Position numbers and translations under genes: made by a program. A stretch of DNA of 64,000 nucleotides from assembly GCF_015706575.1 (NCBI RefSeq), contig NW_024037060.1, positions 1,009,983-1,073,982 on the forward strand, written 5' to 3'. Each line of letters opens with the position of its first letter. The first letter of the stretch is position 1. Shown here one piece after another: positions 7,323 through 50,595 of the stretch. This DNA is from Patiria miniata. Taxonomy: Eukaryota. A model generated the notes under the pieces. The model saw nothing but the letters and a program-made list of their open reading frames with translations. It was not told where the DNA came from and made no database searches.

Positions 7323-7562
7323 CAGTGGCGTAGCCGGGGGGGGGGGCGTGGGGGCGACAGCCCCCCCCCCCCCCCCCATGAAAACTTGTCGCCCCCAGTC
7401 GCCCCCCCCCCCCCTCCCCCCCACCCAGATTTCGAGTTTCTAAAAAAAATATCATTGATCTACATGACGACCCCCAGGATATGTTCTAGCCCCCCCCCCC
7501 CAGCGGCCCCCCCCAGCCCCCCCCCCCCCCCCCCTCATGACAAATTCCTGGCTACGCCACTG
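7323..7562. mobile_element. hAT-like MITE, copy in tandem unit 2
   Basis: same TIRs and TSD as 4668-4912; homopolymer lengths differ. Confidence 0.75.
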
Positions 7563-14902: not shown

Positions 14903-15610
14903 ATGAAGACGGAACTCCGTCAGCGTTTAGACAATCCCCTTCTTGCGTCGAGTCTCACTGGAAAGGGAGGTCCTGGCGCAGGCATCGGAAAAAGCTCTTC
15001 TCTTTTGCTCAGCAACCCCCTTCTGCAGACAAGCAAGACCAAGGATGCACCGACCACGGGGACCAGGGACAAGAATGTTCTGGGTTCCCATGCAGCATCC
15101 AAGCCGGTGTCTGTCAGTATGAAGCAGGAGAGCCTAAGCCTTCGGCACAACCGTCTCCTGCTTGGCTCTAATCTGACCCCCTTGACGTCATCCTCTTCAC
15201 TGAGTAGCACATCGTCGAAGCTAGGAAGCCTGTTTGGCAAACCACCAACATCGGCAGTCTCCAGCAAGTCGACACTTCTCTCAGCGAAGAGTCCACGTCT
15301 GCCAACAAGCAGTACCCTGACCAAAGAAGTATCTTCCAGAGCTCAGGCCAGGCTAGTAAAACATCGCCCTGTTCATCGCCAGATACCGTCACAGCATCCA
15401 CGTCCAGCCCAGCATAAGAAAGTTGCAGAGAGCAGCGTACATCTAGCCGAGCTAGCCGCAGACTTTGAGATTCCTGAGTACAACTTTCACGGTGATTTCG
15501 GGGATGCGGAGGACCAATTCTGGGACTTGGATGACGAGACGTGCTTTGAGGCTGTTGATCCGGAGGTCTTGTCACTTATGATCTCATCTGAAGATGCCAA
15601 GTCTAAAAAG
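14903..15610 (+). CDS. TEP1: TEP1 exon 1: start codon, S/T-rich N-terminus and acidic tail
   Basis: Kozak ccaccATGa; ORF 14903-15790; donor AAG|gtgagt at 15611; peptide [14 protein letters not shown]...[15 protein letters not shown]...EDAKSKK. Confidence 0.75.
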
Positions 15611-18600
15611 GTGAGTCCTCATACAGACAGTTCAGAATGTCACATCTATTTTATAATTCTTAGGCACTCCTTTATGCAGTCATCCTCCGAGAGTTATTAT
15701 GAAGAGCAAATTATCCACCCAACAAATAAAAATTCATTTGAAGTTATTCTTGATGATACCTCAATGGCAAATTACAAAGTACCAAGGTAACAGGGACGGG
15801 AAAAATGCCTCACATTGGACCCTCAATTTATAGAATGGTCCCATACGCACTGTGTATTGGCACTGGACATAATGTAAGTGAATTTATGTTTTTTTACAAT
15901 AAATATAGGTGTATAGAGTGATTTTGATTTGTCATTATTGAGAATATGTTCAATTAAGATATCAATATTTGGGTCAAACTCTCTACAGTTCACCCCACAC
16001 TATGCATTTTTACTCTTGCAGAAAAATTAAGAAATTCCACTATATATTTTTTTGGAGAAAAATACTATTAAGAATGGACAGTGGTAGTCAGCCCACCCCC
16101 CACCCCCCCCCCCAAAAAAATCTGCCCATGAAGCAAGGCTTTTCAAAGACAAATGTATAAGTAATTTGCATGAACTTAGTCATGAGCTTCTTTCAGTATT
16201 TCACTATGTTGCATCATTGGTCACTTTTTCTGATGATGCAGCATTTATTTGCTTATCTGCACGATGAGTCACCTCCTAACCTTACAACAATACAAGCACA
16301 AGTACATGAAGTGTAGCGCTGTGTTTACACCAAGTAACCAGGCTTGGAGAACCATGGGAGAACATACATGTTTGTTTTTATAATACTACATAACATACAT
16401 CAAAAAACAAAACTACCAAATTATTATGGAATACCTCACTTGACTGTAAGTGAATAATAGTCTCAAGCATCCTGTGAAATCACGGCACCTGGTGTGCTGT
16501 CATTTTCAAGAAAAGTGAAATGTTTGTATCTATTTCCAATGATGGTTGGCCAACCATCGTTAAAAAAAAAATGACTTTTTTCAAATACTACCTCCAATTT
16601 ACCAAATTTAGTTACCTGATTATTACCTGCATACCTGATTATTAGGTTTTAATAATAATCCTTCCGTGAAATTCTATGTAGGCTAACTTTGTTTGTTTTT
16701 AACTCATTTCTTGACAGACATCCTTGATCAATCTCGTCAGTTCTTCCCTGGTCAACAATCCCAGCTTCAAAAAGCCAAAGGATGAAACCAGAATAGCTCT
16801 CGTGAAGAATGCAGACTCAGTCATCCAAATAGACCCTGAGTTTTTGCTGAAGGTTTGTGACTTTGGGATGTTGTTTGTTTGTTTGTTTGTTTGCTTGTTT
16901 GTTTTATGGAAGTTGCCCAATGTGCACTGCATTGTGAATAGCCTAAATTCACAACATGTGAAAAATATTGCAAACTGATGATTACAATAAAATAATAAAT
17001 GATGACCCCAAGTTCCATTTAAAAGATCTCACAGATCTGCAACAATGAGTAAATTCTAATACCGGAGTCTGTGACAAAACTAGTCAGTGTCTGATACCAA
17101 GACATTCGCATGGAAAATGAATGTGAAGTTGGGAGACTTGCACACTCGTTTATTCAGTGACAGGTTTTATTTTCCATTTCCATTGTGCACAGGTTGCGTT
17201 GTACACCAGGAAGGATCTGAACATTCGTAGCACGGCCAACTTCCTGTTGGCATTGGCTTCTAACCGTCGGGAATGCCGACCCTACCTGAAGAAGTACTAC
17301 AAGCTGTCCATAGCCCTGCCATCAGATTGGGCCCATGTCGCCGATCTGTACCTTGTAAGCAACACCCCCAGGTTTATTCATAACGCTTCACTACCGTTTT
17401 TTGGCAACTTCCAAGTTAAATTGCTAATTTTCTTGCAAACCTTATTACATGAGATGAGTGCATAAAGTTAAAATACAATGCTTTTGAAAGACTATTCTGA
17501 GTATCAGACTTTCACTTAAAGGGAATATACAACATTTGCAAACATCGAAAAATAAAACTACCAAGTTTTGCGAAATACCTTAATAGGATGTTGGTAAATG
17601 ACAGTCTAAAGCATCCTGTAAAATTATGGCACCTGGTATACTGTCATTTTCAAGAAAAGTGGTATTTTTGTATCAATTTCCAACGCTGATCGGCCGATCA
17701 GCGTTGGAAACAACTGGCTTTTTTTTCAAATACTGGCCCCAATTGACCATTGCACTTGTTTGCAATCGATTACAAACCTATGAACGGGTACGAGCCAGCT
17801 AGACTGGTTCCCTGACCTTACAATTCCCAAATGTATGTAAACTGCTCTGTTTCTTCTTATATGGAGTCAGGGAACCAGACTACAGGAAAATGATCGTTTT
17901 TCTTGGTTTTTATAGCATTTTCGAACCCAAAACCTCCAAAAAGTCAGTGTAACTATATTTGCTTTATATTTCCAACCCCCCAATTCCATCCATTTCTGAA
18001 AATTACAGCAAAAGCAAATGATGTATATTCCCTTTAACAAGAGCCACACGACGAACGTCTGATATATCCTTGCAGGGCAAATTTTTTGCAACTCCGCGTG
18101 CAGCTTATCGGAGTCAACGTTAGAAATTGTGACGTCAGTTCGATCAGACATGTGGACTAAGCTGTTGATTGGTCAATTTGGCTACCATGTATTTGTAGTA
18201 CATCAACAGGTTGCAGAGGACACTCGTGATAGAAGGCGATCAAGACGCGGTGTTCTTTTGCATGATTAAATTCCACTGGTACACATAATCTTGAGACTGT
18301 TTTCATAAAATGTAAACCCCTTTTTTTTTTATGGGATTGTGTGTTTCTATTTTCTGTTGCTTTGTTTTCCTGCAGTCATTTCAAGATAAGGAACTGAGCT
18401 ACAGATCACTACCGTCTGCTCTGAGGAAGGTCATGGTGGCAAAGTTCCCGGACTTCGATACTTATCAACTGGGTAAGTAACCAAAACACACAGGCACTTC
18501 TCGTCTTTTCAAGATCACTCACATTTTTAGATTATTCTTACTGGAAAAACGCTATCTGGATTATCCATATGCTGGATGATTAGCTATTCCAATATTTGAT

Positions 18601-21600
18601 GTATTTGGCACAGCCCTATTTGTCGTACATCCTCCGCTCAGTACGTGCAGGAATCAGCATGCATGATCCCCTTCTCCCCCCCCCCCCATTAAATTCTTGT
18701 GAAGGGTCACAAAGTGGCATCTACTGTCCATAAACGTCTTAAAAGTAAATCCCCTCCTCCCTCATCTTTATGAAGGCAAATACAACAAGACCAAGAAGCC
18801 CAAGAAGAAGAAGATCGACCGTAAGAAAAAGAAGAGCCAAAGCAAGGAGGAGGATCACCAAGACGACAAGGACGAGGACGACAGCGAGGGTGATGACGAT
18901 GAACATTATAAGATGGCATGTCATCTTCCTCTTCATCATGAACATGATGAAGAGGAAGATGACGCGGAGAAGATAGAACCAGAGCCAGTGGAGGAGGACC
19001 ACTATCAGGACGAGCATGGATTCTGCGACAGTTACACCCTCAAGCAGCTTATCAGGAAACTCCACGTTATGGAGCCTGTGGAGAGCGTCATGTGCCTTGT
19101 TGGCAAGAAGTAAGTGAGATATTGTTGTTCGGTGTATCTGCTTTTACATCACGTCCATTATGGCCTAGGGTTGATTTCATGACATTTATTGTAACTTGTG
19201 AACCAACATAGAGTATAGTTAAGGATCCAAAATTGGAATATTCTGTATATTCAGCACAGCCCTAATAGTCCCTGAATATGTGACCTACTGAGGCAAAATG
19301 AGGAATGTCCCCCAAAACTTTGTTTTGAGCAATCAACGCCTGAAGTCGGATATACTAGAAAAATCATGTGAAAAATCGTTTTTGATTGTTTTGTATTTTT
19401 GTGTTTTGTATTTTTGAGTAGCCAAGGTATCCAAGATTCACACTATGCATTTTTGTTGGGAAAAAATAACCCAAAAAGTGGAAAGAATAAAGAACATTTC
19501 TCACTGCCGTTGGCTGCGCAATGCATGACTTTTTTTTCAAAGCCGTTTTTCACAAAATGAGGTTAGAGAAACTTGGCAGGACACTGTTGAAGTTCCTGCG
19601 TCATATCTTTGGAATAAATTAAGCTATATAGCAATAAATTTGGTATCATTGGAAAGCCAATGATTTGCGCTTTAACATGATGTATATAAAACGTGAAAAG
19701 TCAAAGGTGAGGGTTATTCCTCATTATGCTATGGCAGGTCACATATTGCAAAATCCACCACAAACATTTGGCATATCTTATTCTCCAGGTACCCTGACAG
19801 TCTGGAGGCTTTCTACAAGACTCGCCTACCGGGGACCTGGGACCCAGACCGTGCAGGCAAGCGCATGAAACTGCCTACCCCAGAGACTTGGGAGACCCAA
19901 GTGTCACTGAAGGGAAACAAGGCCTCTACATGGGAGGACTTAATAGGTGGGTCAGAGGTCACATCTTCATTACATATATGTGAAGTTATCAGTAAACCTT
20001 GGTTAAAGACATATAGGATCATTAGCTTTTCATGCATGTTGTTCGTTTCCAATAATAACACCACTTATACCTGTTGAAGTTTGAGCTCAGTGGGTATTAA
20101 TTTTCTTGGGAAAACAGTGAAAACCTTGCAAAACCTTTAGATCACGAAACGCTATTTCTTTGGTAGCTCTCTTTATTAAACAAAATCAGTCAATTGACTA
20201 GCCATTGGAATTCACCTACATTTCTTCGAAATGACAGCAAGCCAGACAATTAATTTCACCAGGCCAAGTAAGCTTTTTTGAAAATAGTTTGGTAGATTAC
20301 TTTTGTGCAAGTGATCCTATGCCTTTATGGGAACCTCTGATTAATGATTAATGTAGTTTGTGCCTTACGTCAGCATTTCCAAATATCATTTCCTTAAAGA
20401 CTCGATACTTTTATTTTTATTGCAGACCACAAGAAACTGCCCTTCATGGCCATGTTGAGAAACCTACGTAACATGCTACAGGCGGGGGTCGGGCCAAAAT
20501 ACCATGCTTCCATCCTCCGCAGGCTCACCGATGAAAAGTCTGTCATCAACAGCAGGCAGTTCCCTGTCCGATTCTTCTCTGCTTACGACGTGCTGGATAC
20601 TATGCAGCTCAATCTGGAAATGCAGGAAAAACTAGGTTGATTTATTTTCTTTGTCAGTACAGCAATGAAGGATTTGTCATCTGCACTTGATACAATGATG
20701 GCGTTTTCCATTTTTGGGCTTCCAAACTTGCTTTGAAGTGATCAGGACATTTGCCTCAATGTTGCAATTTGGTCCATCGTAGGTCCTAATTAGTCCTCCA
20801 GTTTGAAGTCAAGTCACAGTCTATTCTAGTGAACTGTGACTCGGACATTCCTTTGTTATGGTTCATCATCTGTTAATACTTGTAAAAGAACTTGTGAGTT
20901 ACTTTTGACCAGACTTGTGACGGAGTTGTACCGGACTCGACTTCAATTCTCTTGCCTCGACGCAGCAGTTGATTTTGGCCAGGTTCGGCCAGACTATAAT
21001 CTTGGACACCATGTAATAGTCATCTAGACTGATGTAAAGCTCCATTTTGTGCTGTTTTTAGAAATGTTTAAATATGGTGCTGAATCATTGTACCATTTGC
21101 CATCAGTGAAATTGTGCACAGAAACAAATACCAACAAGTACCAACATCCTTTTTTTCCTTTTTTTTTTTTAGATTGTTAAAATTTGTTGTTGCATTTCTT
21201 TATTGTTGCATTTTTTCCCTACAGCTTCAGGTGAGATCCAACCTGAGGAGGATGACTTGGGCTATGGACGAGGTCGTGGGCGAGGTCGTGGGCGCGGCCG
21301 TGGGCGTGGTCGCGGGCGAGGTCGCGGGCGTGGTGCTGGCGGGCGTGGTGGCAGAGGTCGGGGTCAATGGGGAAACCGAAATGTTGGAAAACCAACGTGA
21401 GTAACCTGATTTACGTTAAAATCTAAGAATCTGTTAACTGAATCCAGATGTCATCCATTAGGAATCAAAATAAAAACGTGATTGTGTTCAACACAAATGC
21501 CAGAAAAATCATTGTCGTTACAAGTCACTGAATTGTGTGTAGTCAAGTCAAATCATTCTAAGGCAGCAACTCAAATTGAGTGAGTCATGTATTTTTAAGG

Positions 21601-24600
21601 GCTTCATGTTGATGAGCCTTTGATTCTAGTCTGTTGTTTACCGTGACTTGGGCTGTCATGTCTCAAGTTGAGTTGAGTTACCAACAAAAACACGACTCAA
21701 GTCAGAATTGAGTGAATTGAGTGACTCGAGGCTTTACAAGTTTGGCTATAATAAAAACATGTTTTTTCAATGTTATGAAAATAAGATTTTTAACAATTTG
21801 TCCCTTTCTGATTAGGGGTTAGAGTAATGCGCAATGTCAAGTATACATGTGTGTAATAAGTGATTTGAAAAACTCGCCGTGTCTATCGACCGTACAGAAA
21901 AACTCAATCATACAACCGTTTCATGACTAACTGTTTGTTTGTTTTTAAATATAGAGAGCTCAAGTACACCAAGGAGTTACTGGTTCGTTACCGCAAGGCA
22001 CTGGACACTGCCGTCAAGATAGCCACACGTCACAACATCAAACCCATCCGGGGTAAAACCTACTTACTCTGTGACATCGGGCCCAAGATGGATATGTATA
22101 CTGGTGGATCTGGAATGGACAAGGTACAGTGTGGTTCGCCTGTGGATGTTTGAAAACTCAGTCAGCCATGGATTCCTCATGACCTTTGAAACGGGGTAAA
22201 AAAGACCCCCCCCCCCCCGGTCAGTTGTGACGACATTTGAGTAGAGTGCCATGGCCTCGTGGTCTGCAGCATTGAATTATATTTCCATATTGTAGAGGGA
22301 TCGCGCATTCTTGACAAAAAAAATGTTAATACAAGACCTGACATGTAGGAGATAACGCGAGTGCATGTAGGGCGTGCAGCCTTCGAAATATGCGCCCAGT
22401 ACGCTCTGAATAGGGTCATTCTATAAATTTGGGGTCCAAAGTGTGACATTTATCCCGTCCCTGTTACCTTGGTACTTTGTAATTTGCCATTCAAGCATCA
22501 TTAAAAGTGACTTCAAATGACTGTTTATTTGTTGGGTAGGTAGTTTGCTATTCATAATCACTCTTGGAGGATGACTGCATTAAAGAGTGCATCAGAATTA
22601 TACAATCATAGATGTCAGATGTAACAGGGACGGGAAAAAAAGTGAACCCCAAATTTAAAGAATGACGCAATAGTCAATCAGCATCGGTTTCGTATTCTGC
22701 ACAGCCAGGGGTTAGTGAAGGAACATACAAACAGCCCATGTAGTTGAGTTTGCTCCTGATGAGTAGCACAAACAATTTGCTCTGCGATATTTTCTTCTCA
22801 AGAGCTTTGGTTACTTCTTGTTTTTCTCCTAGACTAGAGAGAACGGCCTCCTGCTGGGTCTTATGTGTAAACACTCTTGCGAGGAGTGCATCTTGGTCAG
22901 CTATGGGGTCAACGACCAGAAGGTCATTGAACTGGAGAAGGGAACGCTCCTGGACAATGTCAAAAGCATCGTTGAATATGCAAAGGTAATTCAAGACAAA
23001 TAAACACAATATGTGACCGGATTCCACGAAATAGGAGTAATACATTGTTCAAATTGAGTGCCTGTGGCTGCAAATTGTAAAGATGGCGATACAGTTTTCA
23101 TTTTCATTTTTTCGTTTCTTTACAATATACAGGTATATATAGGTAGGTAGGAATATAATTCATGTACACATGCATTCCGGGCCCCTTCCTCCAATAGGAA
23201 TACCAAAATGCATGTGCGCCTCGTCTTTAAGAACGCATGAAGCATGCGCGTGAGCGTCACACCACCGCAGTAAAAGCTTCTATGATGAGATTTGAAGGTT
23301 TGCATGGTGGAAAGATACTAAGACAAGATAAGTTTGCGGTAGCACCATGTGAATAAATCTCTTTTGTGAGTATGTGTGGTTCTGAAAAGAACCGGAGGGA
23401 CTCAACGTTTCGAACAGTATGCTCTGCCCATCGTCAGGAGAATGAGGGATTCCAACGATGATGCGATGATCAGCATTCCAACATCGCATCATTGTTGGAA
23501 TCCCTCATTCTCCTGACGACAGGCAGAGCATACTGTTCGAAACGTTGAGTCCCTCCGGTTCTTTTCAGAACCTCACATACTCAGGAAAGAGATTTATTCA
23601 CATGGTGCTACCGCAAACTTATCTTGTCTTAAAAGCTTCTAATTCTGGTCGCTGGATTCCTCTATACATGTATGTGTAAATCAGACTTGATTGTAAAAAA
23701 ATCGGGAAACTTGCTTAACTCAAACTCCGAATACCTAAAAAATTGTATCCATTCCCTTGAGATTTGACTTGACGAGAGTTTACTGTACTTGTGACTGGAC
23801 TCATGATTGACTTGTTGATGAATTTGACAACAATCAGTAATGCATTAAGCATTGAGTTTTACTTCACAGGCTGCTGATGGTGACATGGAGGACCACTGGA
23901 ATGCCCCGCCCAGCAAGTTAAACATGACCACCTTGTACGAGGCGCTGCGCGACCGCGTCCACATCGACAACCTGATCATTGTCGGGCAGGACTACACGGA
24001 GGACGGGACGGGCTGGAATGAGATGGAGGACTTTGTGGCCAAGTACCGTCAGCTGGTCAACCCCAACCTGATGTATGTCCAGATTGATCTGACCTCCTCT
24101 TATTCCTGGTAAGATTGTCTCTATATTTGCTCTACTATTTTGGTTTCAGACTGGATTTTGGTTTGTTCCCGAAACGCAGCACATATGTTCCCATCGTACT
24201 ATGTCAAAGATCCATGTGACCGCCCGGTTTACTCATGGTCAGCCACCATTGCAGTGTGCCAGCATTTGGTTAGCAACTACGTCGTGTGTTGTGAACCAGA
24301 CAGTAGGGCTTATTTTCACTTAAATATGCTAATACTTAACCAAATGGCAATATGGTCACTACGTGTGCCCTTGAAGGTTTTCATAATCATTTAGTACTCA
24401 ACCCAATAAATGCTTAGCACACTTCACAGGTGTGCCTTAACTTGAGTATATCGCACATGAGGTACGCTCACAATTCCTTCGGTTCGTAGAAGCCGAGTTA
24501 CGAGGCGGATGGAACCAAAAAGTCTCTAAAAGAACCAAAGAGTCAGTGGTTGAGCAGGAAGAAGACCACATGGGCCTTATCACAAATACTCAGACAATTT

Positions 24601-27600
24601 TCACATTGGCGAGTTTGGCCAAAAAGTATTGTTTGAAGGGAAAGGTCACAAAAAAGACACATCATTCGTATTGATCCTAAAAGTATCCTACCAAATCATT
24701 GGGTGCACCACGAACTAACGTATCGTCTGTGGACTTTGTGCACACGATACGTCACTTTGTGGTGTGACTGACGAAATTGTTATAAAAAATCGCTTTCTTG
24801 GATTAAAATCATACTGGCAATAAACACCGCATGAATTATTCCATCTGACTTGCTGTCGTTTAGGAGAAATCAAGAAGTGTAGGTGATATCCAACAAGTCA
24901 GACAATTGACTGACTTAATGTTGAGTACCGTTGACAAAATCGTGTTTTGTGATCAAAAAGTTGTGCATGATTTTTCACTTTTTTCTTGCAAAATGTAATA
25001 TCCACTGATCTGAAACTTTAGCAGGTTCTTCTTTGGATTTTGAAAAGTGATATTATTGGAAATAATTGGAAAAGAAAAGAAAGCCAAAGAAAGCAACTGA
25101 TCTGATATGCCTTTAAACTATATTTGTGATTTTTTTTAGACTTTTTTTTTTAAACCCTGAAGGAAGGAAAAGCCAGCTAAAAAGCCCAGCCACCCAAATG
25201 ACATCAGTGTGACTGGTTACAGCGATAACATCCTGCGATTCATAGCTGAGCGAGGCGACAGCGGCCAACTGAATCACGTGGAGAACATTGACAAGGCCTA
25301 TGGTCTCCGAGAACTTCAGGTATGTTCTTACTTTACATTGACACATATTGAAGTTTTCCATTAAAATGAAGCAATTTCTTTGTTATTCATAAGATGGAGT
25401 TGTTGGATTTTGTTATTCATAAAATGGAATTGTTGGATTTCTTTGTTGTTTCTGAAGTGGAGATTGTACAAACTAACATGATAACTTTTTTGAAACCACT
25501 ACTTTTTTCGGTCGTACATTATTTTTAGTCTGGTTCCCTGACTGATTCCCTGACTTGCTGCTGAAACTTTTGAATGTCCTTGATGTTGACTGATTCGTCC
25601 CCCCCCCCCACACACCCTCCTACACCCCCCTCCTACACCCCCCTCCCTACACCCCCCCCCAAAAAAAAAAAATTAATAAATATATCAATAAATAAAATAA
25701 AACAAATACATACAATTAAAAAAGATTTCCTTTTGCTACAACCTTGTCCAGTTCCGTCTGATTTTGCAAGAACCTGTCATGAATGAAAAAAAAATTGCAC
25801 AATAAATCTACAATCTTGTAAAACTTTAGGCAAGCTAGTGAAATGGTAAGAGATATTTGAGCACAGGGTTTAGCTGAAGTACTCAAGAAACACAGACCCT
25901 TTCACTAGGTTAAAAGACATAGGGTTTAAAGTCTGATTTCTAGATTCTGTCACTCAACGGTGTTTTTTTTCCGTTTGTGTTGTTATTCTACTCAGGTTGC
26001 AGCAATTGGACGTACTGATTCCAACCAAGCATCTGCTGCCACCAGTCCAGAGACCCCACTGCCCATTGCTGCCCCTGTACACAGGTCAGAAAATCTAAGA
26101 ACTCTCTGAGCGATCCCTGTTTGCTATTTCCCAAGTTTGCGACATTGCTTATATTGCTAGCATCATGACTTTAGGGCGTGATCCCTGACTGGTTATGGTG
26201 GCTTTTCAGCGTTTATTCAGTGTGAAAGTTGTCCCTGTATAATCAGTATCCTAGTTGCTTTCTTGCAACCACCTCTTGAGTTCCCTGCAACCTTGTTAAA
26301 GAGAAAATATTTCTCATGGAATTTTGGAAAACTCAGCAAATTTTGTTTTTATGATGTGTAGGGAACCCTTCAAACAATGCACATTGACCGATATAGGTCA
26401 CCACTTTTGTTCATGGTAGGCATGTCAATTTCGTGCGTTAGCACTATGAGAAATGCTCACACGCCAAAGTTGGGCAGGGCATGTAGCCAATCCAGAATGG
26501 CCCAGTGTGTGGTGTTACATGCTATTAAAAAAGATTACAGGGTAAACCAGCCCAAAATCCTGCTTGACGGTGATTCTTTTGTTTGCTTGTTAGATGGCGG
26601 ACGGCTCGCGTGTTCATCTCCTCCACGTTCCGTGACATGCACGGCGAGCGTGACCTGCTGACCCGCTTTGTCTTCCCTGAGTTGCGGGCTCGGGCCAAGA
26701 AGCTCTTCCTCAATGTGTATGAGGTGGATCTGAGATGGGGCGTGACTGAAGAGGAGACGAGGCAAAACAGGTAGGTGGGCCTAAAATGGAAGTATCTGTG
26801 TTCTGCACAGATCGCTTCAGGTTGCTAGTAACTTACAGTTGACTAGAGACCTGGGCTTGATTTTATGGAACTCCATGCATAGATAGCACATTGTTCTTCG
26901 TTACCACCAATAGACCTTTATCATGCTGCCACCATTTCAGTCATGTTTTTTGTATCCAATAACAGTACTGAAGGATAATGTTTTTGTGCAAAAAGGAGCC
27001 AGACTATTTTTCCTTCCAGCCTCGCTTTGGTTACATTGATGGAGACATGGCTGCCTTATGATAATGGTCTATGGGGAAGACAGAGTGCTTGGGCACGCAC
27101 ATGACACATGTCGGCAGGAAGTACGCACACCTGAGTTTATAATTCCAAATGAGTGACAATGATTCAAGAATTGTCATTCCTTTACACCACTAGATAATGG
27201 CAAATTGTGTCAAACTTCTCTTACTTACAGATCGCTGGAGATTTGCCTGACAGAGGTGTCTCGCTGCAACTACTTCATCGGAATCTTGGGGAAGCGTTAC
27301 GGCTTCTGCCCAGAGGCCTACACGGCGCCGGCCACGGAGGAGTTTGATTGGCTGCAGGACTACCCGGCCGGGCGTTCCATCACTGAGCTTGAGATGCAGC
27401 ACGCGGCGCTGTGCGACCCGCAGATGGCTGTGGGAAGGGCGTTCTTCTACTTCAGAAACAGTGATTTTATGGCGTAAGTCATAACTGAAGGTTACTTCCT
27501 GTGCCTCCCAAAAGCACAGCACTGTGTGATATTATTGGTTCATCAAGGAATTAATACAGTGTAACACATTTTTGTGAAAGTACTAATGGGCAAAGTTGAC

Positions 27601-33600: not shown

Positions 33601-36600
33601 ATGCTGCCCCAGGCTGTCTTTGCTCAGCTGCTGAGGAGCCTGCAGGGGTTCTTGCGCCCTGTCGGGGAACAGAGGTAAGAGGGAATTAGATCTCTTTCAA
33701 AACACCAATCTGAAAAAAAGGTTGTGTCGTTTAACAGGTTTCGCATGTGAAGGGATATGCGTATGCATAGTTTTAGTTATCCGTAACAGTCATTGGCAAT
33801 CCAGTTGTTCGTGTACAGATATGCAAACAATTAGATAGTCGAACCAAGCAGTAATTCAAAATTTTAAAGTGCGCTTGTTCATGGAGTCCCTGGGAAGTTA
33901 ATGAATTCAATATCTCATTGTGTTTTTCACAGTGTTAACCACCTCAGCCTGGCCCACGGTGACATCAATAAGGCTGTCAGACAGCGTTACATGAAGGGCT
34001 CTGGGGCAGAGTCTGAAGCCAGACTACATGCGCTGCTTGCAGGTTAGTAGAGACTGCATTTGTGGCAAACGTGACTTACTGTGGTAATATTGATGGAAAT
34101 GAATGTAATATTGTTTTGCAGTATCAGCTCCCATTGGTATCGGGAGTCGATAAACGGGCTCTTTCAGCTTCTTGGGAACTACGTCGCCAACTTCCAGTAC
34201 CTCAGGGAGCTTATACCTACCCTTAGTAGCCCTGTTCTTGCTGATAAAATTGAAAGCCATCTCAGCAGTTAAATCAATCAAATGACAGTGTTTACAGTTC
34301 GGAACCCTATGCCTACATAAAGCAAGTTCGACTGGCTGTGACAGTTTATTGAATTTGATACAACTGTGCTTTGACTGTAGGTGATTGATATGCCAGTTAT
34401 ACCTGCCAGTTACTTGCTTTTGTCTATTGATGGAATTTAAACAGTTACAACTAAAAATATGATCTGACTGTTAATAACTAACCTGTGTATAAAGACATGG
34501 GGGGGGATTGATTAAAATTTTGACAGTCTTTGACTGCTCAGACAGCAGGAGGGTTCAGCGATGTTTAATTTGTAAAATAAGGCTGCAATTTTATTTCATT
34601 GTAGGCTACTTCTTGCAAGAGGCAGACCCTCTGCGAGACTGCTCCTGGGCCGGTCGGAAGCCGCGCGCCTTCAGCGAGGTCTCCTATCACCTCTCACGCA
34701 CCGCGGCCTACGCAGAGCTGCAGTCGGCGCTGTGCAGCCTGCCGTTCATCTACGCCAAGTGTAGGATGGGTCTGGCCTCAACGCTACTGGACGATTTTGT
34801 CGGGGATAGTGGGTCTGGGGCAGCAGCAACCAACAGAGCTGCTCTTAGGGACAGGGAGAAGTTTCTGGCCAAGCCGCAGGTGCAGGTGGGTCAAGTGTAT
34901 TTGTCGTTTTAAGGCAGGTTCCTTCAAGAACCATGGATAAAGGCACGTAGGAACATTTGTAATTACCTGAAAAGGAACATATGATTTTGATGAGAAAAAT
35001 CTTGTTCAAAGTGAAGATAGAGATAGTACCAAATACCCTGTGAAATTATTTCGCCTAAAGCTTCAGATTTCACTTAATTTTTTTGAGATCAAGAACCAAT
35101 TGTAAGGTAGTATTCTTTTCTTTCTTTTTTTAACCTGAAATGGAATAAGATTATGTAAAAAGTAGCAAGGCAGTATAACATTGAGTTGGGTTGGAAAACC
35201 TTAGCAGGGTGACATGAATGTTTTGCTGGGCATCCAGCCCGTCCCAAACCTTGCGTGAAGAGCACCATAATCTGAACTTTTTTTTCAGATAACGGGGTTT
35301 TTTTTTAATCTGTTTACAGGAATTCCGTTCCTTTGTGTCCCGCAACCTGCACATCGTTTCCAACCTGCCGGCCCTGACCTGGCAACAAGCGGCCAATGAG
35401 CCGTCGGAATCGGCCGTCTGTCAGTCCATGAAGGGCATGATTGACAGCGGGGGCGGGGCTTCTCGTCAGAGTCTGGTGGTCTGGAAGAACAAGAGGGAGG
35501 AGCAGGAGGATTGCGCAATGACCATCACGGGATTCACTCAGGTGAATACAAAACAGAATTGTTTGTATTTATATTAGTCCGTTATTTGAAACTGACTTTT
35601 GGAGTATGTAAAGAAAAAACCTTAACAGCTTCAACTGATAAAGATTGACCCCAAAACTACCTGAACAAAATGAAATACAGTGTATCTCGATAAGTCAAAC
35701 CTCAAGGGAATGAGCTCAAATTTTGAGTTAAGCAGAGTTTGAGTTAGCAAATGGATTTTCTTTTTAACAATTGACGGGAATAAGTTCTTACTTTGAGTTA
35801 GCAGGGTTTTTGATTTAGCAGGTTTTGACTTATCAAGATTTCACTGTAGCACAATCAATTTTCGCTTCTGCATACTGTTTCAAATTCTTTTCTAGCCAAG
35901 AGTATGCTTGCAGTAATAAACTTGACTGTTGTGATCAGAAAATGTCTCATATCTTGGAGACAGGCTTGATAATTTTTTTCCATGAAGAGGTCAACATCTG
36001 CGTGTAGAACTGTATCGCCCTGCACGCCCAGATGCAGCTGTTTTTACTGTCTATTTTATATCGCATGAGATTAAAGTTGGAATTTTTGTGTGAAAAATGA
36101 TATATTTTTTTGGTTTCAATTGTATTGTCTTAATTCTGGTAATGCACAGGAAAGCTAGGTGAATAACTGTAGGTTGATTTAACAAGGATGTCAACCATGA
36201 AGTTAAAAAGTAGATACTTTGGCCATGTAATCAGCCATAGTATATTTTATTGCAGGCTGTAACATGTTTGGCCATTTCAAGCGACGGTGCCTTTGTGGCT
36301 TGCGGTAATGAAGACTGCACAGTGAAACTGTTTGAGCGTGAGACAGCTAAGGTAAGATATCAAGGACAGATCTAACCCATTAATCCCTGCACTGCCCCAA
36401 ACCACCCTGCCTCTTACCCCTTATGCCGGCCCAAACACTCTACGGTTTTCCTGATTCATCGAGGAGTAAATGCAATGTAATACAGTGTAGTACAAGCGCT
36501 AATGGTTAAATACAGTAAAATCCATACGTAATGATCACAAACAACAAAATTGTTTTCATCAATTTTTTATTTTGTATACTACTATGTGTTTGTTTGTTTG

Positions 36601-48600: not shown

Positions 48601-48890
48601 GTCTTTATTCAAGGACGCTTGTCAGAAGCCATACACTTTTAGTCAATTTCATTGTCCAAATTTTAAAAAAAATTATAGATTTTTATCATAGATTCCTATT
48701 TGTCTTGAATGTTGAGAATGACTGATGTTTATAATTTTGTATCTTTCAGGTGGGACAGTTTTACTGCAAGGCTCCCGTTACTACGGTAACTGCATCCCCG
48801 GCCCCAGACAGCACGGAGCTCATATGCGGAGACAAACTGGGGAACGTCTACTTCCTGGAGTGGCGCAGCAAATCTGTAGAGAAATTCTAA
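14903..48890 (+). CDS. TEP1: Gene-level span of TEP1 (telomerase-associated protein 1 / vault protein) ortholog: 48 coding exons, 2708 aa; TROVE, DUF4062, NACHT and a WD40 array
   Basis: Exon peptides align block by block with recalled human TEP1 (e.g. [30 protein letters not shown]; [22 protein letters not shown]; [17 protein letters not shown]; GNVYFLEW at C-term). All splice phases consistent; total CDS 8127 nt. Confidence 0.88.
16718..16852 (+). CDS. TEP1: TEP1 exon 2 (TROVE N-terminal part)
   Basis: acceptor ttgacag|, donor AAG|gtttgt; [27 protein letters not shown] (cf. human LLSLLCSTLV..LEPEFILK); phase 0. Confidence 0.8.
17190..17354 (+). CDS. TEP1: TEP1 exon 3 (TROVE)
   Basis: acceptor tgtgcacag|, donor CTT|gtaagc; [54 protein letters not shown] (cf. 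human ASLYARQQLNVRNVANNILAIAA..LPSDWIQVAELY). Confidence 0.88.
18376..18472 (+). CDS. TEP1: TEP1 exon 4 (TROVE)
   Basis: acceptor ttcctgcag|, donor G|gtaagt; [32 protein letters not shown] (cf. human LPACLRTAMTDKFAQFDEYQL). Confidence 0.85.
18776..19109 (+). CDS. TEP1: TEP1 exon 5 (Lys-rich basic stretch then acidic stretch)
   Basis: acceptor tctttatgaag|, donor AA|gtaagt; [62 protein letters not shown] (cf. human KYNPRKHRAKRHPRRPP..KKLVQRLHIHKP). Confidence 0.82.
19789..19946 (+). CDS. TEP1: TEP1 exon 6 (TROVE)
   Basis: acceptor ttctccag|, donor G|gtgggt; [52 protein letters not shown] (cf. human [39 protein letters not shown]). Confidence 0.9.
20426..20635 (+). CDS. TEP1: TEP1 exon 7 (TROVE)
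   Basis: acceptor ttattgcag|, weak donor G|gttgat; [60 protein letters not shown] (cf. human [40 protein letters not shown]). Confidence 0.85.
21225..21396 (+). CDS. TEP1: TEP1 exon 8: Gly-Arg dipeptide repeat (RG-box-like) insertion
   Basis: acceptor ttttttccctacag|, donor AC|gtgagt; [57 protein letters not shown]; required for phase continuity between exons 7 and 9/10. Confidence 0.7.
21955..22123 (+). CDS. TEP1: TEP1 exon 9 (vWA-like part of TROVE module)
   Basis: acceptor ttttaaatatag|, donor AAG|gtacag; [42 protein letters not shown] (cf. human EMLNRYRQALETAVNLSVKHSLPLLPGRTVLVYLTD). Confidence 0.85.
22833..22985 (+). CDS. TEP1: TEP1 exon 10
   Basis: acceptor ttttctcctag|, donor AAG|gtaatt; [51 protein letters not shown] (cf. 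human YALLLIGMMITRAEQVDVVLCGGD..EGILKTAIKL); larger antisense ORF judged spurious. Confidence 0.78.
23300..23645. repeat. Long near-perfect palindrome (arms ~150 bp, centre ~23468) in TEP1 intron 10
   Basis: ..gaaaagaaccggagggactcaacgtttcgaacagtatgctctgcc..ccaacgatgatgcgatg ATCAGC attccaacatcgcatcattgttgg..ggcagagcatactgttcgaaacgttgagtccctccggttctttt..; outer arms also match. Confidence 0.85.
23870..24108 (+). CDS. TEP1: TEP1 exon 11
   Basis: acceptor acttcacag|, donor TG|gtaaga; [74 protein letters not shown]. Confidence 0.82.
25163..25319 (+). CDS. TEP1: TEP1 exon 12
   Basis: acceptor aaccctgaag|, donor CAG|gtatgt; [52 protein letters not shown] (cf. human PNDVTLSGCTDAILKFIAEHGASHLLEHVGQMDKIF). 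Confidence 0.85.
25996..26084 (+). CDS. TEP1: TEP1 exon 13 (linker before DUF4062)
   Basis: acceptor ttctactcag|, donor AG|gtcaga; [29 protein letters not shown] (cf. human EEDTPSPLAPVSQQG). Confidence 0.78.
26594..26770 (+). CDS. TEP1: TEP1 exon 14 (DUF4062, N-terminal half)
   Basis: acceptor ttgcttgttag|, donor CAG|gtaggt; [58 protein letters not shown], near-identical motif to human TEP1 [37 protein letters not shown]. Confidence 0.92.
27231..27473 (+). CDS. TEP1: TEP1 exon 15 (DUF4062, C-terminal half)
   Basis: acceptor cttacttacag|, donor GC|gtaagt; [59 protein letters not shown] (cf. human [42 protein letters not shown]). Confidence 0.9.
28234..28347 (+). CDS. TEP1: TEP1 exon 16
   Basis: acceptor cttcatttttcag|, donor GG|gtaaga; [37 protein letters not shown] (cf. 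human [29 protein letters not shown]). Confidence 0.8.
28889..29009 (+). CDS. TEP1: TEP1 exon 17
   Basis: acceptor ctctctttccag|, donor GAG|gtaaac; [40 protein letters not shown] (cf. human [37 protein letters not shown]). Confidence 0.85.
29440..29622 (+). CDS. TEP1: TEP1 exon 18 (NACHT Walker A / P-loop)
   Basis: acceptor tgaatcatccag|, donor ACA|gtaagg; [61 protein letters not shown]; P-loop GKSGCGKT. Confidence 0.9.
29688..29990. repeat. 10-bp microsatellite (ATGACATTGT/TACATTGTAT)n, ~30 units, in TEP1 intron 18
   Basis: direct tandem repeats; spurious - strand [13 protein letters not shown].. is a repeat artefact. Confidence 0.9.
30338..30513 (+). CDS. TEP1: TEP1 exon 19 (NACHT)
   Basis: acceptor tttcctcccag|, donor AA|gtgagt; [58 protein letters not shown] (cf. 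human FLASLVSAL..APLVFFHFSGARPDQGLALTLLRRLC). Confidence 0.88.
30692..30842 (+). CDS. TEP1: TEP1 exon 20 (NACHT Walker B)
   Basis: acceptor tctaattacag|, donor AAG|gtagaa; [50 protein letters not shown]; Walker-B hhhhDG (LVIFLDGLD; cf. human VLIIDGADRL). Confidence 0.88.
31391..31567 (+). CDS. TEP1: TEP1 exon 21 (NACHT); followed by a GC-AG intron
   Basis: acceptor cccccaccag|; non-canonical donor CAG|gcaaga (GC-AG class); [59 protein letters not shown] matches human GPLEASARARLVREELALYGKRLEESPFNNQ across the junction. Confidence 0.75.
31615..31800 (-). mobile_element. tRNA-derived SINE in TEP1 intron 21 (tRNA-like head on minus strand)
   Basis: minus-strand read GCTCGGTAGTCGAGTGGTAAGACATCTGCACTAGAAAGCAGGAGGTCGTGGGTTCGAGTCCCACA + non-tRNA tail; related partial copy at 59340-59480 (+). 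Confidence 0.65.
32307..32399 (+). CDS. TEP1: TEP1 exon 22
   Basis: acceptor ctctttgcag|, donor CAG|gtaatt; [31 protein letters not shown] (human MRLLLVKRESGRPLYLRLVTDHLRLFTLYEQ). Confidence 0.9.
32590..33000. repeat. 11-12 bp minisatellite (TGATTTGACTTG / TGATTGACTTG)n in TEP1 intron 22; short recurrence 33250-33320 in intron 23
   Basis: direct tandem units visible; spurious ORFs 32593-32886(-) and 32886-33098(-) are repeat artefacts. Confidence 0.9.
33018..33150 (+). CDS. TEP1: TEP1 exon 23
   Basis: acceptor tgattgaccag|, donor G|gtaagt; [44 protein letters not shown] (human VSERLRTLPATVPLLLQHILSTLEKEHGPDVLPQALTALEVTRSG). Confidence 0.88.
33494..33674 (+). CDS. TEP1: TEP1 exon 24
   Basis: acceptor ggatttatccag|, donor AG|gtaaga; [60 protein letters not shown]. 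Confidence 0.82.
33933..34042 (+). CDS. TEP1: TEP1 exon 25
   Basis: acceptor tgtttttcacag|, donor G|gttagt; [37 protein letters not shown]; phase joins directly to exon 26. Confidence 0.78.
34605..34885 (+). CDS. TEP1: TEP1 exon 26
   Basis: acceptor tttcattgtag|, donor CAG|gtgggt; [76 protein letters not shown] (human RSCPPEALGDLPYHLLQSGNRGLLSKFLTNLHVVAAHLELGL). Confidence 0.82.
35320..35541 (+). CDS. TEP1: TEP1 exon 27 (start of WD40 region)
   Basis: acceptor tctgtttacag|, donor CAG|gtgaat; [46 protein letters not shown] (human FRTFLRQQASILSQYPRLLPQQAANQPLDSPLC). Confidence 0.85.
36256..36351 (+). CDS. TEP1: TEP1 exon 28 (WD40)
   Basis: acceptor ttttattgcag|, donor AAG|gtaaga; [32 protein letters not shown]. 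Confidence 0.85.
36994..37118 (+). CDS. TEP1: TEP1 exon 29 (WD40)
   Basis: acceptor ttttcaccag|, donor AG|gtacgt; [41 protein letters not shown]. Confidence 0.85.
37512..37767 (+). CDS. TEP1: TEP1 exon 30 (WD40)
   Basis: acceptor gatgtaatag|, donor GGG|gtgagt; [78 protein letters not shown] (human [24 protein letters not shown]). Confidence 0.88.
37770..38170. repeat. C/A-rich low-complexity tract (degenerate CCCCAA / CCCAAC / CCCTAA-like) in TEP1 intron 30
   Basis: ccccatcccccaaccgcaacccccacccaacccccaaccccaatcccaacc...ccaaccctaacccaacc. Confidence 0.8.
38287..38406 (+). CDS. TEP1: TEP1 exon 31 (WD40)
   Basis: acceptor ttttgtag|, donor CAG|gtatgt; [40 protein letters not shown]. Confidence 0.88.
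38707..38805 (+). CDS. TEP1: TEP1 exon 32 (WD40)
   Basis: acceptor caaccaatcag|, donor AAG|gtaagg; [33 protein letters not shown]. Confidence 0.85.
39211..39474 (+). CDS. TEP1: TEP1 exon 33 (WD40)
   Basis: acceptor ctttaaattccag|, donor ATG|gtgagt; [61 protein letters not shown] (human VQVWSGSLGRPRGHLGSLSLSPALSVALSPDGDRVAVGYRADGIRIY). Confidence 0.9.
40322..40488 (+). CDS. TEP1: TEP1 exon 34 (WD40)
   Basis: acceptor ataaaccccag|, donor AC|gtaagt; [55 protein letters not shown]. Confidence 0.82.
40835..40937 (+). CDS. TEP1: TEP1 exon 35 (WD40)
   Basis: acceptor tttcttgcacag|, donor GCG|gtaaga; [34 protein letters not shown] (human GHEGPVSCCSFSTDGGSLATGGRD). Confidence 0.85.
41353..41490 (+). 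CDS. TEP1: TEP1 exon 36 (WD40)
   Basis: acceptor ttcgttgtacag|, donor CTG|gtaagt; [46 protein letters not shown] (human FPACHRDWVTGCAWTKDNLL). Confidence 0.88.
41443..41716 (+). repeat. Three tandem copies (~107 bp) of the 3' 47 nt of TEP1 exon 36 plus its GTAAGT donor and intron start; copies 2-3 are intronic pseudo-donors
   Basis: cataaggactggatcactgc(a/t)ctatgctggtctgatagcaatgatttcctg|gtaag.. at 41443, 41552 and 41661. Confidence 0.85.
41720..42190. repeat. 11-bp minisatellite (CATCACAAGTC-like) plus ~170-bp internal duplication in TEP1 intron 36
   Basis: caagtccatcacaagtcctcactagtccatcgctagtccatcac.. repeated; 41930-42000 and 42100-42180 near-identical. Confidence 0.8.
42338..42445 (+). 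CDS. TEP1: TEP1 exon 37 (WD40)
   Basis: acceptor ccttttgatag|, donor AGT|gtaagc; [36 protein letters not shown] (human ISCSSDGSVGLWDPESGQRLGQFLGHQSAVSAVAAV). Confidence 0.88.
43041..43179 (+). CDS. TEP1: TEP1 exon 38 (WD40)
   Basis: acceptor ccccattttag|, donor GAGA|gtaagt; [46 protein letters not shown] (human VVSVSRDGTLKVWDHQGVELTSIPAHSGPISHC); frame differs from the long + ORF 42724-43203. Confidence 0.82.
43720..43913 (+). CDS. TEP1: TEP1 exon 39 (WD40)
   Basis: acceptor gtaatacag|, donor CAG|gttagt; [64 protein letters not shown]. Confidence 0.82.
44210..44329 (+). CDS. TEP1: TEP1 exon 40 (WD40)
   Basis: acceptor tgtctccag|, donor AAG|gtaaca; [40 protein letters not shown] (human THTLLGHSGPVRAAAVSETSGLMLTASEDGSVRLWQVPK). 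Confidence 0.88.
44456..44547 (+). CDS. TEP1: TEP1 exon 41 (WD40)
   Basis: acceptor tttttccttacag|, donor CG|gtacgt; [30 protein letters not shown]. Confidence 0.82.
45059..45140 (+). CDS. TEP1: TEP1 exon 42 (WD40)
   Basis: acceptor ttattttgtgcag|, donor AAG|gtaaca; [27 protein letters not shown] (human GNQAGELILWQEAKAV). Confidence 0.8.
45471..45601 (+). CDS. TEP1: TEP1 exon 43 (WD40)
   Basis: acceptor tttttctttgcag|, donor CA|gtgagt; [43 protein letters not shown]. Confidence 0.82.
45826..45981 (+). CDS. TEP1: TEP1 exon 44
   Basis: acceptor tgtgtttcctcag|, donor AG|gtaatc; [51 protein letters not shown]. Confidence 0.8.
46572..46677 (+). CDS. TEP1: TEP1 exon 45
   Basis: acceptor ttgtttcttcag|, donor CTG|gtacgt; [35 protein letters not shown]. 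Confidence 0.8.
47213..47449 (+). CDS. TEP1: TEP1 exon 46
   Basis: acceptor tttcttcttcag|, donor AAG|gtatgc; [79 protein letters not shown]. Confidence 0.82.
48045..48149 (+). CDS. TEP1: TEP1 exon 47 (WD40)
   Basis: acceptor ttcttcaaaacag|, donor CAG|gtacgg; [35 protein letters not shown] (human SVTALHVLPELLVTASKDRDVKLWERPSMQ). Confidence 0.88.
48258..48570. mobile_element. SINE-like dispersed repeat in TEP1 intron 47; inverted copy at 61690-61900
   Basis: 48400-48460 ggtgaccgttagaggctaaggttctttccaagtgtcccaaccattttggccgggattgtaagtgc is reverse-complement of 61690-61760; tRNA-like T-loop GTTCAAACCCCGC at 48500-48560. Confidence 0.65.
48750..48890 (+). CDS. TEP1: TEP1 exon 48 (last coding exon, stop TAA)
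   Basis: acceptor gtatctttcag|; [46 protein letters not shown] (human LQLAVGDVQGNVYFLNWE*); possible ATTAAA polyA signals at ~48889 and ~49003. Confidence 0.88.
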   Translation: MGQFYCKAPVTTVTASPAPDSTELICGDKLGNVYFLEWRSKSVEKF

Positions 48891-50404
48891 ATTAAAGAAG
48901 ATATATAGTGTGTCATGCTTAAAACTTTATTGATGATTTGAAACTTTGAGATTTATGTTCACATAGTAGGTAGGCAACAGTGCCAACGTTTAATTATTGA
49001 GGTATTAAATGGAAAAAAAAATATTGCAAATACTTACTGAGTTTAAAGATAACTCTAAAAGTATCAAATGTTCTGAGTGTGTATCTTGTACCGCATGCTA
49101 TAAGTTTCATGGAAACAAAAATATTCAAGTTTGTATTATTAAGTAGATTATGATATTTTTTTTCTTCAAAATTTGCTTTCCCGAAAGAAAAGAAGTAGTA
49201 TTCTGGGTTTGTTTGGAATAGATTGAAAAATGAGTTTATCTAAAACTGTTGGTAAAGCAAAGAATGTTGGCAATTTTTGAGTCTAATATTTATTGCCAAA
49301 ATGTTCAAACAGCTAACTGTGTACAATGTGAAAATTTATTAAGATCATTTTATCATACACTGTGTAACAAATGCAAGGAATTTCTAATGTAAAAAAGTTT
49401 AGGTAAGAAAGCGCACATTACTTTGTCATAATGCAATGTCAATCAGTTATCTTGGGAATAATGTACAAGATTCCAATATTTTTTGGAGTTTGGGTTTGTT
49501 TCAAGGTTTGTTGTCACAAAATTTTTAATTTTTTTTATTTGATTGGATATAATAGCTAGAATTAAAGAAAAGTGTATTTCAGAGCAGAGAAAATGTGTTT
49601 GGAGTTGAGCGTTTTATACCGCTCCACAAGGTTAATAAATATTACAAATTCTACCAAGATACCTAGATAAAGAACCGTGTTGAATGTAATTTTATCGAGA
49701 TTGTAAGAAAGCACTAACAATTGAGAAATCACTGATCATGTGTTTGGGAATAATGAGTAAACTCGGATTCTCGGTATATTTTAAGAATAGTTAGGTCGTT
49801 GAACAGAATAAGAACCAACCCAAATACGTGATATAATATGTCTTCTGTATGTTAAATACGGTCTCTTTCCTTTTTCTGAATTTCATATTTTTGTGAGGTT
49901 TGTCACAATAGTGTATTAACCCGTTAAGTATTATCATTGTCTGAATAAAAATATTGGAGGGAAGAAACGAAACGCATTTTCAATAAGGTGGTCGTGGGAA
50001 ATATTTTTGTATAATCTTTGTATAATTCTGGCATATTACTTTATAGCTTGTATTTTAGTCTGAAATATTACTTATGAAGTGTAGATGGATATAAGAGATC
50101 GCTATAACAATTTTATTCAAAAGAAACTACTTTTATTTCACTCTGTTGTCTCAGATGATCGCAATGTTGTTGCAATTCTATTAATAAAAAATTGATTAAG
50201 AGCCACTTTTGTCCGAGGTAGCTATTCATTTAGATTTGAGATTTCCTGTCTTGTTGGCAAAAACGTTGAAGTTTTCGAATGTTGTTGAGTGAACACATTT
50301 AAAGTTTCAGCCCTGCGTGTTATTAAATTAAAACAATGAATGCAGTTTACCTTATAAAAAGGTTTATAAATATCAATTATGTTTTAAATTCTATCTTTGG
50401 ATTG

Positions 50405-50595
50405 ATTGTGGGGCTGTTCCCAGCTACAGTGCTATACTGGGTCAACCCATGGTCAGGGAAGCAAGCTTCGCCAAGACCCGGTTACAAAAATCGCGTGAAT
50501 AACATCGCAGCTGCGCTGTGGCAACTGCCGTCAGATGTTAAGCTGACGAGAACAGATACTCTCACATGATCTTAGCCAGGAGACCGAGAAGCGAT
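50405..50595 (-). ncRNA. U2: U2 snRNA-like gene, copy A (in ~1.4 kb tandem unit)
   Basis: minus-strand read ATCGCTTCTCGGTCTCCTGGCTAAGATCATGTGAGAGTATCTGTTCTCGTCAGCTTAACATCTGA..GAGATTTTTGTAACC (Sm site); TATA box ctatataaagg ~30 bp upstream (+strand 50625-50635). Confidence 0.75.

Follow-up and report, generated by a model that had tools for sequence, protein, structure and literature searches.

A complete 48-exon gene model for a probable TEP1 ortholog in the genome of Patiria miniata

TEP1 (telomerase protein component 1), the minor vault protein whose RNA binding and vault roles have been reviewed (PMC7916137), combines in mammals TROVE, vWA, TIR-like NADase, NACHT and WD40 parts in that order. 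Tetrahymena p80 and Ro60 resemble it in having an RNA-binding TROVE module with a vWA-like domain behind it (Pfam; PMC7916137), but according to the literature the TIR-like, NACHT and WD40 parts are absent from both. Conversely, the STAND ATPases NWD1, NWD2, NPHP3 and APAF-1 share an effector followed by NACHT or NB-ARC and then a helical domain with repeats, but have neither TROVE nor vWA; APAF-1 carries a CARD where TEP1 has its TIR-like domain, and NPHP3 lacks the catalytic glutamate (bioRxiv 10.64898/2026.09.21.753143). The DUF4062 region of TEP1 is a TIR-like NADase that is active inside vaults; in the human protein this activity needs E1008 and drops with the substitution R908A or R976A, and glutamate-dependent NADase activity has been found for the TIR-like domains of human, mouse, zebrafish, sponge and Dictyostelium TEP1 (bioRxiv 10.64898/2026.09.21.753143; 10.64898/2026.05.01.722283). 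Here, we describe a gene at positions 14903–48890 of a 64,000-nucleotide stretch of Patiria miniata DNA (contig NW_024037060.1, positions 1,009,983 to 1,073,982; the whole stretch is called the window), which with a probability of about 95% is an intact TEP1 ortholog, an ordinary member of this well-known family, which is predicted as a matter of routine in genomes of invertebrates.

The window is eukaryotic DNA with a GC content of about 40% and is free of long open reading frames of bacterial type; between 14.9 and 48.9 kb its plus strand carries many short open stretches whose translations resemble TROVE, DUF4062, NACHT and WD40 sequences. Our gene model for this region is complete and uninterrupted, with 48 exons on the plus strand and a coding sequence of 8124 nucleotides that specifies 2707 amino acids without an internal stop. 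It starts with the ATG at 14903, 21 nucleotides downstream of an in-frame TAG, and stops with a TAA that ends at 48890, directly before an ATTAAA that starts at 48891. Forty-six of the 47 introns are GT-AG and one is GC-AG (length 126–1107 nucleotides, median 541), and over the whole model the splice sites follow the consensus MAG/GTRAGT for donors and T-rich-CAG/G for acceptors. With a codon table taken from exons 2–48, the model frame scores highest in 47 of the 48 exons, the exception being exon 8; per 150 nucleotides, exons average +26 as opposed to −37 ± 16 for intron windows, and exon 1 reaches +76.5 in frame versus −39 and −17 in the other two frames.

This model was built independently of an earlier note on the same DNA, which had put forward a phase-consistent 48-exon TEP1 gene of 2708 amino acids. 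We combined an ab initio exon-chain dynamic program, fed with codon log-odds, splice-site matrices and homology coverage, with a protein-to-genome spliced aligner of our own and manual inspection of junctions, and arrived at the same start, stop and exon count, the protein being 2707 amino acids long. Exons 5, 8 and 21, which the earlier note had flagged, proved to be the three non-standard features of the gene (an AAG acceptor with a charged insert, an RGG microsatellite and a GC donor, respectively). Several references were used in the spliced aligner, which at low intron penalty added tiny spurious terminal exons that were disregarded. The initial homolog searches had returned proteins of at most 1384 amino acids; the full-length references (2300–2950 amino acids) came from a library of representatives queried with exon 3 alone. 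The spliced alignment of the scallop protein (P0287) gave 48 exons, of which 42 equal those of the model exactly and the other six each share one boundary; for the sea urchin and crinoid proteins, 37 of 46 and 38 of 45 exons equal the model. All three chose the GC donor of exon 21, and a C-terminal ortholog of 866 amino acids (P0164) confirmed 13 exons of the WD region exactly. A first-pass ab initio model (54 exons, 2983 amino acids) was rejected after spliced alignment and junction inspection. Owing to its weighting by tblastn coverage, it contained false small exons at 20263–20267, 20913–20982, 21816–21840, 31597–31718, 38592–38658 and 42606–42671 and read through into introns at the 3′ end of exon 2 and the 5′ end of exon 6; per-residue BLAST coverage was too permissive a filter for such exons.

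Orthology to TEP1 is carried by end-to-end alignments and Pfam profiles. Concatenated pieces of the N half match proteins named telomerase protein component 1 at 49–57% identity (Branchiostoma, Saccostrea, sharks and many others), and the tblastn matches of these proteins lie on the plus strand only and are colinear. The NACHT region is 51% identical to a TEP1-like protein of Lingula, and the WD region is 39% identical to P0164 over 917 columns. Most importantly, BLASTP of the model against eight full-length TEP1-like proteins bore out the TEP1 identity claimed in the earlier note, with single alignments of 2012–2331 columns at E = 0, far more than chance would give. Identity is 48.2% over 2120 columns with Lytechinus pictus, 47.4% with Anneissia japonica and 43.9% with Mizuhopecten yessoensis, for which model residues 454–2699 pair with residues 493–2699 of 2701 and both C-termini are reached; the full-length proteins of Branchiostoma, Priapulus, Mya, Brachionus and Tigriopus align as well. 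Every named full-length match is called "telomerase protein component 1-like", "telomerase component 1-like" or "TEP1-like", and from about amino acid 110 onward colinearity extends to the very end of the protein. The urchin (48%) and crinoid (47%) proteins resemble the model as much as they resemble each other (46%), with molluscs, amphioxus and priapulid slightly lower, a pattern suggestive of an ambulacrarian source, an echinoderm or a hemichordate. None of the homolog searches found a near-identical protein, the top identity being 79% over a TROVE piece of only 98 amino acids. The gene is probably a single-copy ortholog.

Compared with the invertebrate TEP1-like proteins of Lytechinus pictus (XP_063952437), Anneissia japonica (XP_033107315) and Mizuhopecten yessoensis (XP_021378535), the window protein has the same domain order and a similar length (2526–2701 amino acids in those three), while it belongs to a different lineage at 44–48% identity and its charged exon-5 insert and RGG insert are particular to it in length and sequence. 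Its N half is also colinear with TEP1 fragments of deer, platypus and turtle. The earlier note had asserted colinearity with human TEP1 across the TROVE, DUF4062, NACHT and WD40 regions, and colinearity with mammalian TEP1 holds for the parts compared, namely N-terminal fragments from deer and platypus and the TIR-like domain of the human protein (PDB 11gz); in such blocks identity to mammalian TEP1 is about 34–54%, and an RGG box in the TROVE linker sets the window gene apart.

Pfam profiles recovered the domains in the order that the earlier note had given. TROVE covers amino acids 229–692 (333.6 bits; cut-off 23), DUF5920, which is vWA-like, 721–892 (46.2 bits; cut-off 27), DUF4062 933–1044 (59.7 bits) and NACHT 1193–1360, a region that also matches AAA_16 (42.4 bits) and NPHP3_N (29.1 bits). 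Within it, Walker A (GKSGCGKT, amino acids 1197–1204) and Walker B (VIFLDGLD, about 1289–1296) are intact. HTH_NWD1 follows at 1407–1533 together with a weak APAF1_C match, as a winged-helix and helical region, and the WD40 region, propellers of some 1000 amino acids, extends from about 1690 to 2700, with 319.9 bits for WD40 in 10 stretches, 274.6 bits for Beta-prop_TEP1_2nd (cut-off 89) and 215 bits for Beta-prop_TEP1_C (cut-off 32), the full profile 1–73 of which aligns at 2628–2699. A PDB search with the whole protein returned no full-length TEP1 structure, only matches to the TIR-like domain, to generic WD40 proteins or to APAF-1, whose chains match amino acids 1575–1865.

The TIR-like match is to the human TEP1 domain (PDB 11gz_A; E = 5e-62, 47.6% identity over 212 amino acids). 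Residues 15, 61, 83 and 115 of that chain correspond, with an offset of 893, to human R908, R954, R976 and E1008, and these are identical in the model as R941, R987, R1009 and E1041, as is the RWG loop. The window TEP1 thus keeps both its catalytic and its P-loop residues, and NADase activity would be expected by extension. The exons of the model are as follows, each with the evidence for its boundaries.

14903–15610, plus strand: exon 1 (708 nucleotides), start codon, S/T-rich N-terminus followed by an acidic stretch; donor 15610 in three full-length spliced alignments.
16718–16852, plus strand: exon 2, start of TROVE; exact with P0287, P0297 and P0311, splice sites inspected.
17193–17354, plus strand: exon 3, TROVE; exact in all spliced alignments, 74% identity to the scallop TEP1-like protein.
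18376–18472, plus strand: exon 4, TROVE; exact in spliced alignments.
18776–19109, plus strand: exon 5, TROVE with a K-rich then D/E-rich insert and a weak AAG acceptor; exact with P0287, P0297, P0311, P0008 and P0043.
19789–19946, plus strand: exon 6, TROVE; exact in spliced alignments.
20426–20635, plus strand: exon 7, its weak donor the last possible before a stop; spliced alignments.
21225–21396, plus strand: exon 8, RGG box (GYGRGRG...RGRGQW) in the TROVE linker; strong splice sites, exact with P0287.
21955–22123, plus strand: exon 9, end of TROVE; exact with P0008, P0092 and P0287, other acceptors at 21957 and 21898.
22833–22985, plus strand: exon 10, DUF5920/vWA-like; spliced alignments.
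23870–24108, plus strand: exon 11, DUF5920/vWA-like; spliced alignments.
25163–25319, plus strand: exon 12, DUF5920/vWA-like; spliced alignments.
25996–26084, plus strand: exon 13, linker; exact in 4 of 4 earlier and 3 of 3 full-length spliced alignments.
26594–26770, plus strand: exon 14, DUF4062/TIR-like with R941 and RWG 975–977; spliced alignments and PDB 11gz match.
27231–27473, plus strand: exon 15, TIR-like with R1009 and catalytic E1041 (GAG at 27391–27393); spliced alignments and PDB 11gz match.
28234–28347, plus strand: exon 16, TIR-like; spliced alignments and PDB 11gz match.
28889–29009, plus strand: exon 17, end of the TIR-like domain; spliced alignments and PDB 11gz match.
29440–29622, plus strand: exon 18, NACHT with Walker A; spliced alignments and Pfam.
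30338–30513, plus strand: exon 19, NACHT; spliced alignments.
30692–30842, plus strand: exon 20, NACHT with Walker B; spliced alignments.
31391–31567, plus strand: exon 21, NACHT, followed by the GC-AG intron (CAG/gcaaga); donor score 7.9, exact in three full-length alignments with GC donors allowed.
32307–32399, plus strand: exon 22; spliced alignments.
33018–33150, plus strand: exon 23, HTH_NWD1; spliced alignments and Pfam.
33494–33674, plus strand: exon 24, HTH_NWD1; spliced alignments.
33933–34042, plus strand: exon 25; spliced alignments.
34605–34885, plus strand: exon 26, APAF1_C-like helical region; spliced alignments and Pfam.
35320–35541, plus strand: exon 27; spliced alignments.
36256–36351, plus strand: exon 28, WD40; spliced alignments.
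36994–37118, plus strand: exon 29, WD40; spliced alignments.
37512–37767, plus strand: exon 30, WD40; spliced alignments.
38287–38406, plus strand: exon 31, WD40; spliced alignments.
38707–38805, plus strand: exon 32, WD40; spliced alignments.
39211–39474, plus strand: exon 33, WD40; spliced alignments, P0164 choosing donor 39493.
40322–40488, plus strand: exon 34, Beta-prop_TEP1_2nd; spliced alignments and Pfam.
40835–40937, plus strand: exon 35; spliced alignments.
41353–41490, plus strand: exon 36, its 3′ end and donor duplicated in the next intron; spliced alignments.
42338–42445, plus strand: exon 37; spliced alignments.
43041–43179, plus strand: exon 38; spliced alignments.
43720–43913, plus strand: exon 39, WD blade with an acidic/basic insert that P0164 shares; donor common to all alignments, ab initio acceptor that P0297 and P0311 reproduce exactly.
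44210–44329, plus strand: exon 40; spliced alignments.
44456–44547, plus strand: exon 41; spliced alignments.
45059–45140, plus strand: exon 42; exact with P0164, P0297 and P0311.
45471–45601, plus strand: exon 43; exact with P0164 and P0287.
45826–45981, plus strand: exon 44; exact with P0164 and P0287.
46572–46677, plus strand: exon 45; exact with P0164 and P0287.
47213–47449, plus strand: exon 46; acceptor as in P0287 and donor as in P0123, both ends together recovered by no reference.
48045–48149, plus strand: exon 47, Beta-prop_TEP1_C; exact with P0123, Pfam.
48750–48890, plus strand: exon 48, Beta-prop_TEP1_C (...GNVYFLEW...) and TAA stop; spliced alignments and Pfam.

The N-terminus, encoded by exon 1, fits the earlier description of a serine- and threonine-rich segment (30% of the first 160 amino acids) with two NPLL motifs, found at amino acids 11 and 38, in place of the vertebrate repeats; an NRLL at amino acid 83 adds a third motif (window 14933–15160). 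Pfam TEP1_N repeats gave no match here even at E ≤ 10, whereas a deer TEP1 control scored 233 bits with 4 copies. The same short motif, as NPLL, NRLL, NKLL or NRCL, recurs in other TEP1 N-termini; in mammals it lies within each 30-amino-acid repeat as SLENRCLATL, and the Lytechinus TEP1-like protein also opens with it (MSYLSNPLLT). In a discovery set of 27 proteins, shuffles predicted 1.08 occurrences of N[PRK][LC]L before TROVE; the observed number was 24, and the other 16,426 residues contained none. Because the motif had been defined after viewing these sequences, it was retested unchanged on 49 further representatives. Nineteen of these carry it, with 30 occurrences before TROVE where 1.85 were expected, and the 63,160 residues outside this part contain only 4. 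The enrichment in TEP1 N-termini across animals is about 16-fold; the two sets are not fully independent, as a few of the 49 proteins come from species of the first set. Carriers include sea urchin, amphioxus, sharks, hagfish, barnacle, fluke and others (for example P0043, P0024, P0297, P0348 and P0370). Since the motif is so widely enriched, we tentatively read the three copies, at slightly less than even odds, as a short linear motif, approximately [L/x][E/x]N[P/R/K][L/C]L[S/T], which is retained throughout the animals in the disordered N-termini of TEP1 and makes up the core (LENRCL) of the TEP1_N repeats in mammals. They would then probably be the conserved core of those repeats and not the substitute for them that the earlier note had seen. 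Should this be true and the motif have a function, it would be a candidate for docking to a partner such as the vault shell, with the mammalian repeats as its expanded form. This link between unexplained mammalian repeats and an animal-wide motif is the only mildly new point of our analysis.

By analogy with the described proteins, the TROVE and vWA parts of the window protein would bind small structured RNAs (vault RNA) and hold them in the vault, while the TIR-like domain would hydrolyse NAD+. The WD40 propellers may hold the NACHT module off until a signal permits oligomerisation, as in STAND proteins of the APAF-1 type, and oligomerisation would in turn raise the local TIR concentration and with it NADase activity. 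Such WD40-gated oligomerisation is offered as speculation by the authors of the 2026 TEP1 NADase preprints themselves.

Could the model have fused two neighbours, one a Ro/p80-type gene with TROVE and vWA, the other a TIR-like-NACHT-WD40 gene? TROVE-only and DUF4062-NACHT-only proteins are frequent in databases, and Branchiostoma records occur as separate fragments (P0043 and P0030). However, the clusters of these fragments also include versions of 2574–2718 amino acids, exons 12–14 join in phase with no need of a stop or start signal, linker exon 13 is recovered with all references, and full-length proteins from eight phyla cross the vWA/TIR-like junction in one alignment, so that we regard a fusion as very improbable. 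An unprocessed TEP1 pseudogene, unexpressed or decaying, might be suspected from the tandem repeats and SINE-like (short interspersed element) sequences in several introns and from the partial duplication of exon 36, but it is hard to reconcile with a frame that stays open over 8124 nucleotides, canonical ends at 47 of 47 introns, retained catalytic and P-loop residues and a codon bias of coding type, and we give it very little credence. There is hardly any chance that the gene is instead a paralog akin to NWD1, NWD2 or NPHP3 within the broader TeTIR-NACHT family. Weaker matches at 26–32% identity do include NPHP3-like and TPR-containing relatives, and "telomerase protein component 1-like" is the name given to some of these as well; yet these carry TPR repeats and lack TROVE and vWA, whereas the window protein has TROVE, DUF5920 and both TEP1-specific propeller families and, over its full length, is 40–48% identical to TEP1-like proteins.

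More weight must be given to the prospect that the real transcript differs locally, with exon 8 alternative or no exon at all, or with exon 5 split, and a protein shorter by tens of residues; we consider this unlikely, though far from negligible. Exon 8 is coded by a (GGTCGT)-like microsatellite with a 12-nucleotide unit in about 6 copies. Several observations count against our reading of the gene as a complete TEP1 ortholog with the junctions as drawn: the microsatellite is open in all three frames and another frame scores better than that of the model; skipping exon 8 with acceptor 21957 stays in frame, so that a skipping isoform is conceivable; other junction choices (acceptor 21955 versus 21957 or 21898, donor 39474 versus 39493) shift 1–19 residues; the NACHT profile, at 28.1 bits, barely exceeds its cut-off of 26.7; expression and the exact junctions are predicted from sequence, in a model of the coding exons; and all functional statements are carried over from vertebrate, sponge and amoeba proteins. 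Three of nine references, and the crinoid protein in its full-length alignment, leave exon 8 unused, and P0001, P0005, P0048 and P0092 split exon 5 by a 93-nucleotide gap, although an intron of that size would be smaller than any other in the gene. Donor 39474 was preferred over 39493 because splice-site scores favour it. Exon 8 was kept because its splice sites are strong (acceptor 7.3, donor 4.0), the frame set by exon 7 yields an RGG box, orthologs are RG-rich at the same place of the TROVE linker (oyster and several others), and references select it: six of the nine chose the RGG frame, in which the oyster and scallop references recover it, the scallop protein (P0287) exactly. An RG-rich TROVE linker is also seen in several protist and metagenomic TEP1/p80-like proteins. 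With an intact TEP1 ortholog as the preferred reading, the window supplies a checked full-length model for a lineage without a TEP1 of its own among the search matches, and adds a data point, an expected one, for the retention of the complete TEP1 architecture, NADase catalytic residues included, in invertebrate deuterostome-like lineages.

Several introns of the gene contain repeats. Intron 36 holds a 105-nucleotide tandem duplication (41519–41716; 1.9 copies, 96% identical) that repeats the last ~55 nucleotides of exon 36 with its donor (/gtaagt), only the first copy being in frame, and 11-nucleotide satellite arrays follow at 41739–42200. Other intronic arrays are a satellite with a 10-nucleotide unit repeated 29 times at 29692–29980 (ACATTGTATG), one with a 12/35-nucleotide unit repeated 32 times at 32631–33011, and a CCCAA-rich array at 37790–37974 with a P/T-rich translation in all frames; none of these three lies within exons. 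Two tRNA-like sequences on the minus strand, at 31713–31785 in intron 21 and 48500–48572 in intron 47 (Rfam tRNA, 44 and 40 bits), are probably tRNA-derived SINEs; ARAGORN assigned no anticodon to the former. Rfam also matched a histone 3′ untranslated region stem-loop in intron 10 (23353–23398, minus strand; 40.5 bits; GGTTCTTTTCAGAACC). A histone 3′ end was rejected there, as no histone open reading frame adjoins and the match sits inside an inverted duplicate; because the surrounding ~200 nucleotides recur inverted at ~23470–23676, the stem-loop looks like part of a foldback repeat.

Outside the gene, a tandem duplication with a period of ~2.64 kb and copies 93–100% identical occupies 3544–8860 upstream and matches nothing in Pfam or Rfam. 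Just downstream of the gene, a stretch of 3.2 kb carries three full-length matches to U2 small nuclear RNA (Rfam, 116–122 bits) at 50404–50595 (minus strand), 51816–52008 (minus strand) and 53379–53571 (plus strand), which are ~92% identical to one another and have an intact Sm site. Each of them has AUGUGAGAGUAUCUG in place of AAGUGUAGUAUCUG in the Rfam consensus, and the branch-point-binding GUAGUA is therefore altered; they may be variant or pseudogene copies. Further downstream, exon-like open stretches on the minus strand at 55993–56286, 59087–59308 and 60636–60986 resemble major-facilitator transporters (…VYKARWFILAVFSLL…, …GIAGPVMMSAPTELSAVWFPP…), with a Pfam MFS_1 match (E = 2e-4) that is below the cut-off, and probably belong to a neighbouring gene convergent with TEP1.

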